A DNA stretch of 19,945 bases from a virus. Its lineage: Duplodnaviria; Heunggongvirae; Uroviricota; Caudoviricetes. Of this stretch, positions 12,152 to 19,945 are shown in pieces. The notes under the pieces are model-generated. The model was given only the letters and a program-made list of their open reading frames with translations, made no database searches and had not been told where the DNA came from. How positions within the stretch are numbered: the stretch's first letter is position 1; every line of letters begins with the position of its first letter. Where the stretch lies: the IMG/VR virus record IMGVR_UViG_2627853844_000002. One strand, written 5' to 3'. A program made the translations under genes and the position numbers.

Positions 12152-12562
12152 TTAGCGTGGTAAGATCTGTGTAGTTTTCTGGATGCTTTCAGTAAATAGT
12201 AATGAATTATCAAAGGTATAGTAATATCTTTTTTGTTCGTGGATATTTGTAACCCACCGAAAAACTCCTGCTTTAGCAAGGTTTCTTCTGTATTCCTGAA
12301 ATGTGATCTCTCTGGATTTCAGCTTATTAGAGGTCGTTTCTATAAGATGCCTATCCTTTGAAAATTTGACAGACACAATGTTTTTTAGGCCCTTTAATAA
12401 CACTGTATTATCATTTTTTAATACAATATGAACATTCTCTGTGGCTAAATAGTAAATGTAATGTGAGACATTGTGACGTTTTAGCTCAGAATAAAACCAT
12501 TGATAGTTTAAATCGTTTCGAACTTTATCAAATATTTGTTTAAAAATGACTACCTGATCCAT
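12152..12562 (-). CDS. ydfO: YdfO, DUF1398-family prophage protein (136 aa)
   Basis: ORF translation [54 protein letters not shown]...; GGAAGG SD 7 nt upstream of ATG 12562; an IS10 end lies 37 bp upstream. Confidence 0.8.
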
Positions 12563-12589: not shown

Positions 12590-12598
12590 GGCGTAGTC
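12590..12598. repeat. IS10 target-site duplication, left copy (GGCGTAGTC)
   Basis: Identical 9-mer directly abuts both IS10 termini (12590-12598 and 13928-13936). Confidence 0.9.
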
Positions 12599-12644
12599 CT
12601 GATGAATCCCCTAATGATTTTGGTAAAAATCATTAAGTTAAGGT

Positions 12645-12713
12645 GGATACACATCTTGTCATATGATCAAATGGTTTCGCGAAAAATCAATAATCAGACA
12701 ACAAGATGTGCGA
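12645..12713 (-). ncRNA. IS10 antisense RNA-OUT (from pOUT; represses transposase translation); coordinates approximate
   Basis: Placed from established IS10 organisation (RNA-OUT covering roughly IS10 nt 47-115, overlapping the transposase start at nt 108); not derived independently from the sequence. Confidence 0.5.
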
Positions 12714-13914
12714 ACTCGATATTTTACACGACTCTCTTTACCAATTCTGCCCCGAATTACACTTAAAACGACTCAACAGCTTAACGTTGGCTTGCCACGC
12801 ATTACTTGACTGTAAAACTCTCACTCTTACCGAACTTGGCCGTAACCTGCCAACCAAAGCGAGAACAAAACATAACATCAAACGAATCGACCGATTGTTA
12901 GGTAATCGTCACCTCCACAAAGAGCGACTCGCTGTATACCGTTGGCATGCTAGCTTTATCTGTTCGGGCAATACGATGCCCATTGTACTTGTTGACTGGT
13001 CTGATATTCGTGAGCAAAAACGACTTATGGTATTGCGAGCTTCAGTCGCACTACACGGTCGTTCTGTTACTCTTTATGAGAAAGCGTTCCCGCTTTCAGA
13101 GCAATGTTCAAAGAAAGCTCATGACCAATTTCTAGCCGACCTTGCGAGCATTCTACCGAGTAACACCACACCGCTCATTGTCAGTGATGCTGGCTTTAAA
13201 GTGCCATGGTATAAATCCGTTGAGAAGCTGGGTTGGTACTGGTTAAGTCGAGTAAGAGGAAAAGTACAATATGCAGACCTAGGAGCGGAAAACTGGAAAC
13301 CTATCAGCAACTTACATGATATGTCATCTAGTCACTCAAAGACTTTAGGCTATAAGAGGCTGACTAAAAGCAATCCAATCTCATGCCAAATTCTATTGTA
13401 TAAATCTCGCTCTAAAGGCCGAAAAAATCAGCGCTCGACACGGACTCATTGTCACCACCCGTCACCTAAAATCTACTCAGCGTCGGCAAAGGAGCCATGG
13501 GTTCTAGCAACTAACTTACCTGTTGAAATTCGAACACCCAAACAACTTGTTAATATCTATTCGAAGCGAATGCAGATTGAAGAAACCTTCCGAGACTTGA
13601 AAAGTCCTGCCTACGGACTAGGCCTACGCCATAGCCGAACGAGCAGCTCAGAGCGTTTTGATATCATGCTGCTAATCGCCCTGATGCTTCAACTAACATG
13701 TTGGCTTGCGGGCGTTCATGCTCAGAAACAAGGTTGGGACAAGCACTTCCAGGCTAACACAGTCAGAAATCGAAACGTACTCTCAACAGTTCGCTTAGGC
13801 ATGGAAGTTTTGCGGCATTCTGGCTACACAATAACAAGGGAAGACTTACTCGTGGCTGCAACCCTACTAGCTCAAAATTTATTCACACATGGTTACGCTT
13901 TGGGGAAATTATGA
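12706..13914 (+). CDS. IS10 transposase (402 aa)
   Basis: ORF translation MCELDILHDSLYQFCPELHLKRLNSLTLACHALLDCKTLTLTELGRNLPTKARTKHNIKRIDRLL... recognised as IS10 transposase; start at IS10 nt 108. Confidence 0.95.
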   Translation: MCELDILHDSLYQFCPELHLKRLNSLTLACHALLDCKTLTLTELGRNLPTKARTKHNIKRIDRLLGNRHLHKERLAVYRWHASFICSGNTMPIVLVDWSDIREQKRLMVLRASVALHGRSVTLYEKAFPLSEQCSKKAHDQFLADLASILPSNTTPLIVSDAGFKVPWYKSVEKLGWYWLSRVRGKVQYADLGAENWKPISNLHDMSSSHSKTLGYKRLTKSNPISCQILLYKSRSKGRKNQRSTRTHCHHPSPKIYSASAKEPWVLATNLPVEIRTPKQLVNIYSKRMQIEETFRDLKSPAYGLGLRHSRTSSSERFDIMLLIALMLQLTCWLAGVHAQKQGWDKHFQANTVRNRNVLSTVRLGMEVLRHSGYTITREDLLVAATLLAQNLFTHGYALGKL

Positions 13915-13927
13915 GGGGATCTCTCAG

Positions 13928-13936
13928 GGCGTAGTC
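13928..13936. repeat. IS10 target-site duplication, right copy (GGCGTAGTC)
   Basis: Same 9-mer as 12590-12598, directly after the IS10 inside end. Confidence 0.9.
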
Positions 13937-13957
13937 TGCACGATTATCTAAATTGCT

Positions 13958-14191
13958 TCAATCTGGTCTGACCTGTTTTCTGAGCAATTCAGTAATGTCA
14001 CTCTTTTCTTTGTTTGCTTCAGAAGAAACTCTTTTTTCTGAGCACAGTCTCCGGCGGCAGGCTTCAATGACCCAGGCTGAGAAATTCCCGGACCCTTTTT
14101 GCTCAAGAGCGATGTTAATTTGTTCAATCATTTGGTTAGGAAAGCGGATGTTGCGGGTTGTTGTTCTGCGGGTTCTGTTCTTCGTTGACAT
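13958..14191 (-). CDS. ynfO: YnfO, uncharacterised prophage protein (77 aa)
   Basis: ORF translation MSTKNRTRRTTTRNIRFPNQMIEQINIALEQKGSGNFSAWVIEACRRRLCSEKRVSSEANKEKSDITELLRKQVRPD; stop lies 22 bp from the IS10 target duplication. Confidence 0.7.
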   Translation of the reverse strand: MSTKNRTRRTTTRNIRFPNQMIEQINIALEQKGSGNFSAWVIEACRRRLCSEKRVSSEANKEKSDITELLRKQVRPD

Positions 14192-14329
14192 GAGGTTGCC
14201 CCGTATTCAGTGTCGCTGATTTGTATTGTCTGAAGTTGTTTTTACGTTAAGTTGATGCAGATCAATTAATACGATACCTGCGTCATAATTGATTATTTGA
14301 CGTGGTTTGATGGCCTCCACGCACGTTGT

Positions 14330-14579
14330 GATATGTAGATGATAATCATTATCACTTTACGGGTCCTTTCCGGTGATCCGACAGGTTACGGGGCGGCGAC
14401 CTCGCGGGTTTTCGCTATTTATGAAAATTTTCCGGTTTAAGGCATTTCCGTTCTTCTTCGTCGTAACTTAATGTTTTTATTTAAAATACCCCCTGAAAAG
14501 AAAGGAAACGACAGGTGCTGAAAACGAGCTTTTGGGCCTCTGTCGTTTCCTTTCTCTGTTTTTGGCCGTGGAATGAACA
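14330..14579 (+). other. Lambda-type cohesive-end site: cosQ / cosN (GGGCGGCGACCT at 14391-14402) / cosB
   Basis: CGCACGTTGTGATATGTAGATGATAATCATTATCACTTTACGGGTCCTTTCCGGTGATCCGACAGGTTACG followed by GGGCGGCGACCTCGCGGGTTTTCGCTATTTATGAAAATTTTCCGG... matches the lambda right-end/left-end junction as I recall it, with a few substitutions in cosB. Confidence 0.85.
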
Positions 14580-15149
14580 ATGGAAGTCAACAAAAAGCAG
14601 CTGGCTGACATTTTCGGTGCGAGTATCCGTACCATTCAGAACTGGCAGGAACAGGGAATGCCCGTTCTGCGAGGCGGTGGCAAGGGTAATGAGGTGCTTT
14701 ATGACTCTGCCGCCGTTATAAGATGGTATGCCGAAAGGGATGCTGAAATTGAGAACGAAAAGCTGCGCCGGGAAGTTGAAGAACTGCGGCAGGCCAGCGA
14801 GACAGATCTCCAGCCAGGGACTATTGAGTACGAACGCCATCGACTTACGCGTGCGCAGGCCGACGCACAGGAGCTGAAAAATGCCAGAGACTCCGCTGAA
14901 GTGGTGGAAACCGCATTCTGTACTTTCGTGCTGTCGCGGATCGCAGGTGAAATTGCCAGTATTCTCGACGGGATCCCCCTGTCGGTGCAGCGGCGTTTTC
15001 CGGAACTGGAAAACCGACATGTTGATTTCCTGAAACGGGATATCATCAAAGCCATGAACAAAGCAGCCGCGCTGGATGAACTGATACCGGGGTTGCTGAG
15101 TGAATATAACCGCGCTGACAGACAATACGCAGGGGGCAGCAGGTCTTGA
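14580..15149 (+). CDS. nohA: Terminase small subunit Nu1 homolog, C-terminally altered by a deletion fusion (189 aa)
   Basis: ORF translation [46 protein letters not shown]... matches lambda Nu1 as recalled up to ...LLSEY, then diverges into [13 protein letters not shown] where the sequence joins stf. Confidence 0.9.
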
Positions 15150-16062
15150 GTTATACGAGGTGTATAACAACGGATATCCAACAGCGTATGGAAATATCAT
15201 TCACCTGAAAGGGATGACAGCCGTTGGCGAAGGTGAGTTACTCATCGGCTGGAGTGGTACAAGCGGTGCTCATGCTCCGGCATTTATTCGTTCACGACGG
15301 GATACGACCGACGCAAACTGGTCGCCGTGGGCGCAGCTTTACACCTCGGCTCATCCTCCTGCAGAGTTTTATCCAGTCGGTGCACCAATCCCGTGGCCAT
15401 CAGATACCGTTCCGTCTGGTTATGCCCTGATGCAGGGGCAGACTTTTGACAAATCTGCATACCCGAAACTTGCAGTTGCTTATCCGTCAGGCGTGATCCC
15501 TGATATGCGTGGCTGGACGATTAAGGGCAAGCCCGCCAGTGGTCGGGCCGTATTATCTCAGGAACAGGACGGCATTAAATCGCACACCCACAGCGCCAGC
15601 GCATCCAGTACGGATTTGGGGACGGAAACCACATCGTCGTTTGATTACGGAACCAAATCCACGAATAACACCGGGGCGCATACCCATAGTATTAGCGGGA
15701 CCGCAAATAGTGCCGGTGCGCACCAACACAAGAGTTCCGGTGCATTTGGTGGCACGAACACGAGCATTTTCCCTAATGGTTATACCGCGATTTCAAATCT
15801 AAGCGCGGGGATTATGAGCACAACAAGCGGTAGTGGCCAGACTCGTAATGCAGGGAAGACATCATCAGATGGTGCTCATACCCACTCGCTGTCCGGCACT
15901 GCTGCAAGCGCAGGCGCGCATGCACATACTGTCGGTATTGGTGCTCATACGCACTCCGTTGCGATTGGTTCACATGGACACACCATCACCGTTAACGCTG
16001 CTGGTAACGCGGAAAACACCGTCAAAAACATCGCATTTAACTATATTGTGAGGCTTGCATAA
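15100..16062 (+). CDS. stfQ: Side-tail-fibre C-terminal fragment (320-aa ORF from GTG; 5'-truncated remnant, likely not independently expressed)
   Basis: ORF begins inside nohA with no SD; Gly/Ser/Thr/Ala-rich with repeated GAHTHS / AGAHxH motifs typical of phage tail-fibre distal domains; followed by the tail-fibre assembly gene. Confidence 0.7.
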
Positions 16063-16637
16063 TGGCATTCAGAATGAGTGAACAACCACGGACCATAAAA
16101 ATTTATAATCTGCTGGCCGGAACTAATGAATTTATTGGTGAAGGTGATGCATATATTCCGCCTCATACAGGTCTGCCAGCAAACAGTACCGATATTGCAC
16201 CGCCAGATATTCCGGCTGGCTTCGTGGCTGTTTTCAACAGTGATGAGTCATCGTGGCATCTCGTTGAAGATCATCGGGGTAAAACGGTTTATGACGTGGC
16301 TTCCGGCGACGCGTTATTTATTTCTGAACTCGGTCCGTTACCGGAAAATGTTACCTGGTTATCGCCGGAAGGGGAGTTTCAGAAGTGGAACGGCACAGCC
16401 TGGGTGAAGGATACGGAAGCAGAAAAACTGTTCCGGATCCGGGAGGCGGAAGAAACAAAAAACAACCTGATGCAGGTAGCCAGTGAGCATATTGCGCCGC
16501 TTCAGGATGCTGCAGATCTGGAAATTGCAACGGAGGAAGAAATCTCGTTGCTGGAAGCATGGAAAAAGTATCGGGTATTGCTGAACCGTGTTGATACGTC
16601 AACTGCACAGGATATTGAATGGCCAGCACTGCCGTAG
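16062..16637 (+). CDS. tfaQ: Tail-fibre assembly protein (191 aa)
   Basis: ORF translation [78 protein letters not shown]...; start overlaps the stf stop. Confidence 0.85.
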
Positions 16638-16734
16638 GGTAAAACATATAAATTCTATAATTAGATGTATCTTTCCATTTACGGCAAGGAAGGGGGCTTG
16701 GAAGACGTAAAGCATCTCACACCGAGATTATTTT

Positions 16735-17325
16735 TTATATGTCAGGTGTCTGAAGTTTTGCTTTGGCTCTTAAAATGGTTTGCCGCGAGGTTTTGAATTC
16801 CCGGGCAATGGCACTTATACTTACACCTGACTTAATTCGTTCGAATACCGCCTGTTTCTGTTCTTCATTTAACACAGGTGGTCGACCAAAACGTTTCCCT
16901 GCGCCGCGGGCTCTTACTATCCCGGAATGAGTGCGTTCAAGTAAAAGGTCTCGTTCAAATTCAGCGACTGCTGAAATTACTTGCATCATCATTTTTCCTG
17001 TTGGACTGGTCAGGTCAATGCCCCCCAATGCTAAGCAATGCACTCTGATACCTGTTTCGGTCAGTTGTTCCACTGTTTTCCTGATATCCATTGCATTACA
17101 ACCAAGGCGATCCAGTTTTGTCACAATCAATTGATCACCACATTTCAGGCGAGCAAGCAACCGGTTAAAACCAGGACGCTCACTGGTTGCTGCTGAGCCG
17201 CTAATGTGTTCTTCGATTATTTGCTGAGGTTTGATTTTAAAACCTGCACTTTCGATTTCCCGGCGTTGATTTTCGGTGGTCTGATCCAGCGTTGATATCC
17301 GACAGTAAGCAAAAATTTGAGACAT
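16735..17325 (-). CDS. pinQ: Pin/Gin/Hin-family serine DNA invertase (196 aa)
   Basis: ORF translation [29 protein letters not shown]... with the catalytic Ser in the YxRxSTxxQ motif and a C-terminal HTH. Confidence 0.9.
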
Positions 17326-17641
17326 AGTGAGACTCTATACGAAATTGGTGTTCATATCATAATGCATCTCAGAAAATAATTATGATTATTTTTGTGCATA
17401 TTTGTATGTACACGTTCGAAAATAAACGAATGCGTATGCAACCCCGTAATTTTGGTGAGACCCAAAATCGATTTTGTGAAAAATGGCTTTAACTCGGTTT
17501 GTTTTTCGAGTTCCGGGCGGACTCAAGGAAGAAGAATAGTGTTGCGTGTTATTTTAACCAGATTTCAAGTTGTTTGGTCGTGGAAAAGTGGAGCAAAATG
17601 TTGTTAAAGTGGAAAAATGATAAAAAAGTAAGTTTATTATA

Positions 17642-18661: not shown

Positions 18662-19945
18662 ATGGATTTCCAGTTATATTCGCTCGGCGCAGCGTTAGTG
18701 TTTCATGAAATATTTTTTCCTGAATCATCAACGGCAATGGCGTTAATTCTGGCAATGGGAACCTACGGTGCAGGTTATGTGGCGCGTATTGTCGGAGCAT
18801 TTATTTTCGGCAAAATGGGCGACAGAATAGGGCGTAAAAAAGTGCTCTTTATTACCATCACCATGATGGGGATCTGTACCACCTTAATTGGTGTGTTACC
18901 GACCTATGCACAGATTGGTGTTTTTGCACCCATCTTGCTGGTGACGTTGCGTATTATTCAGGGGTTGGGTGCAGGTGCGGAAATTTCCGGTGCCGGTACG
19001 ATGCTGGCGGAATATGCGCCAAAAGGTAAGCGCGGAATTATCTCCTCATTTGTGGCTATGGGAACTAACTGCGGAACCTTGAGCGCAACGGCAATCTGGG
19101 CCTTTATGTTCTTCATTCTCAGTAAAGAGGAACTGCTGGCGTGGGGATGGCGTATACCGTTCCTGGCGAGTGTTGTCGTGATGGTCTTTGCTATCTGGTT
19201 GCGTATGAATCTGAAAGAAAGCCCGGTCTTTGAGAAGGTTAACGACAGTAACCAACCGACAGCAAAACCTGCACCTGCTGGTAGCATGTTCCAGAGCAAA
19301 TCCTTCTGGCTGGCAACAGGGCTGCGTTTTGGTCAGGCGGGTAACTCCGGGTTAATTCAGACTTTCCTTGCAGGCTATTTAGTGCAGACGTTATTGTTTA
19401 ACAAAGCAATTCCAACAGATGCATTGATGATCAGTTCGATTCTCGGCTTTATGACCATTCCGTTCCTTGGTTGGTTATCCGATAAAATTGGTCGCCGGAT
19501 CCCGTATATTATTATGAATACCTCCGCGATTGTGCTGGCATGGCCAATGCTTTCTATCATTGTAGATAAAAGCTATGCCCCGAGCACCATTATGGTTGCA
19601 CTGATTGTGATTCATAACTGTGCGGTGCTGGGATTATTTGCTCTGGAAAACATTACCATGGCAGAAATGTTCGGCTGTAAAAACCGCTTTACCCGGATGG
19701 CTATTTCTAAAGAAATTGGTGGTCTTATCGCTTCCGGTTTTGGTCCTATCCTGGCGGGTATTTTCTGCACCATGACGGAATCCTGGTATCCGATCGCCAT
19801 TATGATCATGGCATATTCAGTGATTGGTTTAATCTCTGCGCTGAAAATGCCAGAGGTGAAAGACCGTGATTTAAGTGCGCTGGAAGACGCTGCGGAAGAT
19901 CAACCGCGTGTTGTAAGAGCTGCGCAACCTTCCAGAAGTCTGTAA
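18662..19945 (+). CDS. ydfJ: MFS transporter (metabolite:H+ symporter family, ProP/ShiA/KgtP-like), apparently N-terminally truncated (427 aa)
   Basis: Many hydrophobic transmembrane segments; the G-x3-D-R-x-G-R-K motif occurs at about residue 50 rather than about residue 90, implying loss of the first one to two transmembrane helices; an in-frame stop lies 2 codons upstream of the ATG. Confidence 0.8.
   Translation: MDFQLYSLGAALVFHEIFFPESSTAMALILAMGTYGAGYVARIVGAFIFGKMGDRIGRKKVLFITITMMGICTTLIGVLPTYAQIGVFAPILLVTLRIIQGLGAGAEISGAGTMLAEYAPKGKRGIISSFVAMGTNCGTLSATAIWAFMFFILSKEELLAWGWRIPFLASVVVMVFAIWLRMNLKESPVFEKVNDSNQPTAKPAPAGSMFQSKSFWLATGLRFGQAGNSGLIQTFLAGYLVQTLLFNKAIPTDALMISSILGFMTIPFLGWLSDKIGRRIPYIIMNTSAIVLAWPMLSIIVDKSYAPSTIMVALIVIHNCAVLGLFALENITMAEMFGCKNRFTRMAISKEIGGLIASGFGPILAGIFCTMTESWYPIAIMIMAYSVIGLISALKMPEVKDRDLSALEDAAEDQPRVVRAAQPSRSL

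Follow-up and report, generated by a model that had tools for sequence, protein, structure and literature searches.

A single illegitimate deletion as the probable origin of the nohA–stfQ junction in the Qin prophage of Escherichia coli K-12

The junction between nohA and stfQ in the Qin prophage is best explained as a scar that formed when one illegitimate deletion removed 21,134 bp. This deletion left nohA with a swapped tail and, overlapping it, an open reading frame (ORF) in which the first codons of the large-terminase gene A are joined to the 3' part of a side-tail-fibre gene (A'-'stf). The probability of this reading is estimated at about 0.92.

The stretch of DNA analysed (19,945 nucleotides, in the following called the window) is, judged by its sequence, the Qin cryptic prophage of E. 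coli K-12 in the form found in strains of the ER2796/ER3413 type, which carry an extra IS10. Its ORFs follow the order cspB/cspF, essQ, rrrQ, rzpQ, cspI, ydfO, ynfO, nohA, stfQ, tfaQ, pinQ, ydfK and a truncated ydfJ. The latter, a transporter gene (18662–19945) with the PGAP remark 'missing N-terminus', had its 5' end cut off by the integration of the prophage and marks the Qin attachment site. The size of the prophage at this locus varies from 11 to 97 kb between strains (PMC6379469).

Qin is a textbook defective prophage, Qin, nohA and stfQ are already known and annotated, and the scar is a case of ordinary prophage decay with little importance in itself. What is added here is the breakpoint to the exact base, the ancestral allele carried by a wild strain, the extent of the loss and what it comprised, and the start signals of the A'-'stf frame; in the literature on stfQ, nohA/nohB/nohD and Qin no account of the breakpoint or of the A'-'stf fusion was found. 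The in-frame nature of this fusion matters to annotators as well as to readers of stfQ knock-out or expression data.

The junction and its undeleted counterpart

The left side of the junction belongs to nohA (14580–15149, plus strand; b1548 in NC_000913), a homologue of the small terminase Nu1 with 189 aa, whose sequence is native up to 15108. NohA matches the Pfam family Phage_Nu1 (PF07471) with E = 2.7e-101 over positions 1–164 of the 164 of the profile, that is, over the whole domain. As befits a gene of the Nu1 type, cosN and a lambda-like cosB lie directly upstream: the 12-nt cohesive end GGGCGGCGACCT (14391–14402, plus strand) agrees in every base with the left end of lambda (NC_001416) and is followed by the cosB region, which extends up to nohA. 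Not in keeping with this type are the foreign C-terminus and the remainder of just 9 nt of A.

At the break the sequence reads ...ctgagtgaatata/accgcgctgac..., the slash standing after 15108. A search of 50,697 phage genomes assigned positions 14400–15108 to cos and nu1 of lambda-like phages (98.6–98.9 % identity) and positions 15107–16700 to the 3' part of a side-tail-fibre gene together with tfa (95–98 %), and none of these genomes contained a record covering both sides of the junction. The fibre gene of phage mEp460_ev081 comprises 3,072 nt, and its match to the window begins at about codon 707. In a three-way alignment the homology changes over at GAATATA/ACCGCG. These phage matches and the alignment agree with the first-pass annotation, according to which nohA follows lambda Nu1 to 15108 and then runs on into tail-fibre sequence, and the alignment which it had proposed for finding the breakpoint and any microhomology locates the switch at 15107/15108. 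Because the homology to Nu1 ends at 15108 and that to the side-tail-fibre gene starts at 15107, the two parents have only the dinucleotide 'TA' in common. This is a microhomology of 2 bp with no filler DNA, reflected in a 2-nt overlap of the BLAST segments, and it is not significant, since an overlap of at least 2 bp would be expected, by a hand calculation, in about 16 % of random joins. The identity of nearly 100 % which flanks the junction on both sides is not due to chance. As in an illegitimate deletion scar, one intact relative is collinear with both flanks, the join is clean and the shared bases are few.

The same annotation spoke of Nu1 fused to stf, which applies to the DNA but not to the protein: beyond the junction the nu1 frame reads stf in another phase and reaches a stop after 13 codons. 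Compared with the ancestral protein of 181 aa, the last five native codons of nohA are thus replaced by 13 out-of-frame stf codons, and the novel 13-residue C-terminus that had been proposed was correctly recognised, as the undeleted Nu1 confirms.

The intact relative is the wild strain MLI108K2 from Mali (NZ_CP117001.1). Here the same prophage, without the deletion, occupies the ydfJ site as in K-12, and the proteins YnfO, YdfO, TfaQ, PinQ and YdfK are identical. Its nohA encodes 181 aa (...LLSEYIEQSG) and its stf 1024 aa, and between nohA and tfaQ the complete, lambda-like morphogenetic module A-W-B-C-D-E-FI-FII-Z-U-V-G-T-H-M-L-K-I-J-lom-stf is found, B being the portal and C the protease gene. 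In a BLAST comparison the window aligned with MLI108K2 in two blocks, 13927–15108 (99.1 % identity) and 15107–17567 (99.9 %), which are 21 kb apart in that genome. All 11 mismatches of the left flank fall within 14272–14374 and there is none from 14375 to 15108; the right flank has three in 2,461 nt. Position 15108 corresponds to position 12197 of the MLI108K2 locus and 15109 to 33332. Hence, relative to this copy, K-12 has lost 21,134 bp. The missing DNA comprises the final 17 nt of nu1, everything after base 9 of A, 19 other whole genes and codons 1–707 of stf. Counted as genes, the loss amounts to the 20 from A to lom, in addition to the last five nu1 codons.

The proposed course of events is one illegitimate, microhomology-level deletion of these 21,134 bp within Qin in the K-12 lineage of E. 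coli. Its left break lies 9 nt into A, equal to 17 nt before the end of nu1, and is inside both genes because they overlap; its right break separates codon 707 from codon 708 in the stf gene of 1024 codons. That one deletion took the large terminase, the portal and the head and tail genes had already been suggested from the window, and the undeleted copy at the same site bears this out, the single event being inferred from parsimony.

Of 5,426 complete E. coli genomes, 359 were matched by an 80-nt probe across the junction, each a single time and with at least 99 % identity. Nearly all of the 60 carriers sampled from these 359 are laboratory derivatives of K-12; they include MG1655, BW25113, DH5alpha, DH10B types, JM109, C600/EC600, J53, MC4100 and TG1. 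In other genomes the left half of the probe leads into the large terminase, and full-length fibre genes contain the right half. The near identity to the intact copy indicates that the deletion is recent and lineage-specific.

Start signals, expression and product of stfQ

stfQ (15100–16062, plus strand) encodes 320 aa and consists of codons 1–3 of A in frame with codons 708–1024 of stf. The remnant of A (15100–15108, plus strand) comprises its native GTG and codons 2 and 3 (V/M-N-I), which now serve as the first three codons of stfQ; at the fusion point, codon 3 of A (ATA, its last two bases being the shared TA) passes in frame into codon 708 of stf (ACC). As an in-frame join is expected by chance in one of three cases, it is no evidence of selection. 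An in-frame TGA (15097–15099) directly precedes the GTG at 15100.

The first-pass annotation had placed the start of stfQ at a GTG inside nohA, had found no ribosome-binding site and had concluded that the frame is probably not expressed or expressed only by chance. The position of the GTG is right, but the sequences compared show that the codon is not there by chance: the large-terminase gene natively starts at this GTG. In lambda, nu1 occupies 191–736 and A 711–2636, so that both overlap by 26 nt, base 711 is the GTG of A, and the 50 nt in front of it are identical to 15050–15099 of the window. For the undeleted Qin, the PGAP annotation likewise lets A begin at the counterpart of 15100; the frame there reads VNISNSQVNRLRHF..., which is gpA. 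Being composed of the first three A codons and stf, the fusion therefore retains the initiation region of A. This includes a GGGG upstream of the GTG with a 5-nt spacer, for which an anti-Shine-Dalgarno pairing of −5.7 kcal/mol is predicted, against −5.6 for tfaQ and −3.3 for nohA; a value like that of stfQ is reached at about 10–16 % of arbitrary positions. The Shine-Dalgarno sequence of stfQ is weak but native, and the statement that the gene lacks a ribosome-binding site does not hold. The argument from a chance GTG without a ribosome-binding site to missing expression fails because the start and the upstream signals are A's own, yet its conclusion may still hold through missing transcription.

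That stfQ is a fully silent remnant which is never translated is considered slightly less probable than the opposite. In favour of silence, the late genes of a repressed defective prophage are normally untranscribed, a consensus scan from IS10 to nohA gave no promoter-like site on the plus strand (with a total for the region at chance level), and cloned DNA from upstream of nohA showed low promoter activity in a lacZ fusion (PMC1802558). In the ER2796/ER3413-type strain IS10 stands, in addition, between the late operon and nohA, and in one proteome supplement nohA has all-zero values (PMC8144880). On the other hand, the start codon and the upstream region are those by which lambda makes gpA, the predicted Shine-Dalgarno pairing of stfQ equals that of tfaQ, and the scan found no terminator-like site between nohA and the start of stfQ. 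The A'-'stf fusion would accordingly be translatable, through the weak initiation region of A, whenever a late transcript is made; this transcript would normally be silent, and here IS10 would separate the genes further from the late promoter. One N-terminomics supplement contains no entries for stfQ, nohA or tfaQ.

The IS10 (12599–13927, plus strand; 1,329 bp, with a transposase of 402 aa) lies between ynfO and cos/nohA and is bordered by a target duplication of 9 bp, GGCGTAGTC, at 12590–12598 and 13928–13936. Its junction with the flanking DNA was found in ER2796 and ER3413 only, and neither MLI108K2 nor NEB5-alpha has an IS10 here. It is strain-specific and separate from the deletion, and it should exert a polar effect on late-operon transcription towards nohA and stfQ.

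Between IS10 and nohA, further features were observed. Just left of cos, at 14272–14374, the window differs from the undeleted Qin of MLI108K2 by 11 substitutions. In this patch the MLI108K2 Qin resembles the K-12 prophage DLP12, with three differences between these two, whereas the K-12 Qin, which is presumably lambda-like here, differs from both; the pattern of substitutions suggests a small recombination patch. Upstream of cos/nohA there are also a published FNR-binding sequence, TTAAGTTGATGCAGATCAATTAAT, and a Fur box close to the consensus, GATGATAATCATTATC (14247–14270 and 14338–14353). Both sites are reported to be bound, in vivo or in vitro, and promoter activity was low (PMC1802558, PMC2189734).

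As to the protein, StfQ lacks the phage_tail_N attachment domain (PF08400), which covers residues 1–134 of the ancestral Stf of 1024 aa, but retains the collar (Pfam Collar domain, E = 9.9e-12), the needle and the receptor-binding tip. Residues 90–320 resemble the tip structure of T4 gp37 (2XGF) with E = 2.9e-83, the His-x-His repeats included. Seven of these (SHTHS, AHTHS, AHQHK, AHTHS, AHAHT, AHTHS and SHGHT, at 15595–15975) align with the needle region of 2XGF. stfQ is listed by PGAP as a pseudogene 'missing N-terminus' and in the MG1655 reference as a CDS. The gene of the tail-fibre assembly chaperone, tfaQ (16062–16637, plus strand), whose start overlaps the stop of stfQ, is intact, with a Pfam Caudo_TAP match of E = 3.6e-43 and the same protein accession as in the undeleted Qin; stfQ is thus followed by a Tfa gene, as is usual for lambdoid Stf. 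The serine recombinase gene pinQ (annotated at 16735–17325, minus strand) lies 3' of the fibre genes. Without its attachment domain, the StfQ fragment would most likely be a functionless remnant. A realistic role for the fibre remnant of Qin might be that of a recombination substrate, supplying fibre sequence to infecting lambdoid phages. De Paepe et al. found that infecting lambda acquires stf-tfa of Qin through Red/RecA recombination, mainly Red, at about 2e-6 (PMC3945230).

Other deletions near the nu1/A overlap and alternative histories

Further nu1 fusions were found as partial matches to the junction probe and mapped on the intact Qin copy, so that their ends can be given in window-equivalent coordinates. 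Including that of K-12, five independent prophage deletions from different E. coli lineages have their left ends within 15084–15108, four of them within 15084–15088. A fusion of nu1 to L in a single genome, LWY6, has its left end at 15084, shares 'GA' and spans 12.8 kb. Two classes end at 15086, namely a fusion to a fibre domain (189 genomes) and, in Qin prophages of the PEC399 type (52 genomes), a fusion to a fragment of J with 'GATA' shared and an imperfect 10-bp match. A fusion to J with its left end at 15088, sharing 'TACC' and about 15.4 kb long, occurs in 65 genomes, among them E. coli B, BL21, C and some wild isolates. The K-12 fusion to stf, with the shared 'TA', ends at 15108.

In PEC399 itself (NZ_CM168011.1, 1032–2711) nohA is followed by a 303-nt J fragment, a 207-nt fibre fragment, tfaQ and pinQ. 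This allele represents a second, independent path of Qin decay at the same locus, and its sampled carriers all come from non-laboratory sources.

The clustering of ends near the K-12 break suggests that the left end is possibly not random. One might assume that the nu1/A overlap is a genuine recurrent boundary, of which the K-12 Qin is one of at least five instances: either a deletion hotspot or a selected cut, by which cos and Nu1 are kept while A and the structural genes are shed. This is held to be rather unlikely. For it speak the five junctions with the right partners L, fibre domain, J, J and stf, which show a microhomology of 2–4 bp where the right partner was mapped, and the results with 120-nt ancestral probes. 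With these, 311 of 4,062 records were truncated at the nu1/A overlap, and 306 of the 311 belong to the three classes counted above (65, 189 and 52 genomes). The probe just upstream gave 9 of 4,007, the one just downstream none of 3,766, and a probe located 500 nt into A gave 7 of 3,355. However, record counts reflect clonal expansion rather than independent events, and two of the control windows contain at least one event as well. Moreover, DLP12 of K-12 broke further inside A (aaaD). Among the sequence features examined, none was found to account for the clustered left ends: the nearest Chi-like octamer, GCTGGATG (15071–15078), considered with a view to resection halted by Chi, has two mismatches to Chi, and the RNA fold around the start codon is at chance level (z-score 0.15). 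Since clonal expansion inflates the record counts, the clustering is suggestive but not established. It provides a possible handle on the dismantling of prophages, the meaning of which hinges on counting independent events, and if the boundary were genuine, orphan cos-Nu1 modules may be kept for a host or mobilisation function.

The PEC399-type Qin also bears on the number of steps in K-12. With nu1, a J fragment and an stf fragment in a row it must have undergone at least two deletions, so multi-step decay does exist in this family, and the K-12 junction could in the same way have arisen by two or more deletions in succession. Against this stand the clean junction, the partial matches sampled, among which no intermediate with either K-12 endpoint was present, and the flanks, whose virtual identity to the intact copy leaves little time for serial events. 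A stepwise origin is thus improbable, and the single deletion remains the preferred explanation.

That the C-terminus of nohA and the start of stfQ are the native, unfused genes of a compact element, a finding which according to the first-pass annotation would speak against a fusion and for which the MG1655 reference, with b1548 and b1547 as ordinary CDS, might be cited, has next to no probability in view of the undeleted copy at the same locus (Nu1 of 181 aa, Stf of 1024 aa, 20 genes between them), of the thousands of genomes in which the left half of the junction runs on into the large terminase, and of StfQ itself, which is without the N-terminal fibre domain and is rated by PGAP as an N-terminally truncated pseudogene.

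Other mechanisms were considered as the origin of the junction and rejected. Homologous recombination between prophages does not fit a junction that shares only 2 bp, and cleavage at cos with subsequent end joining does not fit an intact cos that is 700 bp away, on the left side of the break. An origin mediated by Pin, with an invertible segment of the Pin/Gin type at pinQ, was dismissed as well: inverted repeats of at least 14 nt are absent from 14900–17500, save for a palindrome with overlapping arms at 15710–15729, and the breakpoints vary among lineages.

Comparison with related prophages and phages

The Qin prophage of K-12 MG1655 (nohA b1548, stfQ b1547, tfaQ, pinQ) represents the same locus and matches the window in gene order, ORF limits and the junction; ER2796/ER3413 differs from it by the additional IS10 between ynfO and cos. 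The Qin of MLI108K2 differs in that it keeps the 21,134 bp from A to codon 707 of stf, has IS3 and IS1 insertions of its own and bears, left of cos, the DLP12-like patch with its 11 substitutions.

Lambda is nearly base-for-base alike over cosN, nu1 and the start region of A up to 15108. In contrast to Qin it contains the whole morphogenetic module, and the fibre allele of K-12 is of the mEp460/T4-gp37 type. Phage mEp460_ev081 shows the same stf-tfa-recombinase order as Qin. StfQ is similar to the crystallised collar-needle-head fragment of T4 gp37 (2XGF), but has no shaft or attachment region and is encoded in a defective prophage.

A parallel case of decay is DLP12 (nohD-aaaD-tfaD), where cos and nu1 were also retained and the head and tail genes are gone down to the fibre-assembly sequence. 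The nu1 gene of DLP12 is the one shown to be functional in lambda (PMC3945230). Unlike nohA, nohD is intact with 181 aa, A is broken a few hundred nt into the gene, which gave rise to the pseudogene aaaD, and the receptor-binding fibre fragment, which is still present in Qin, was not retained.
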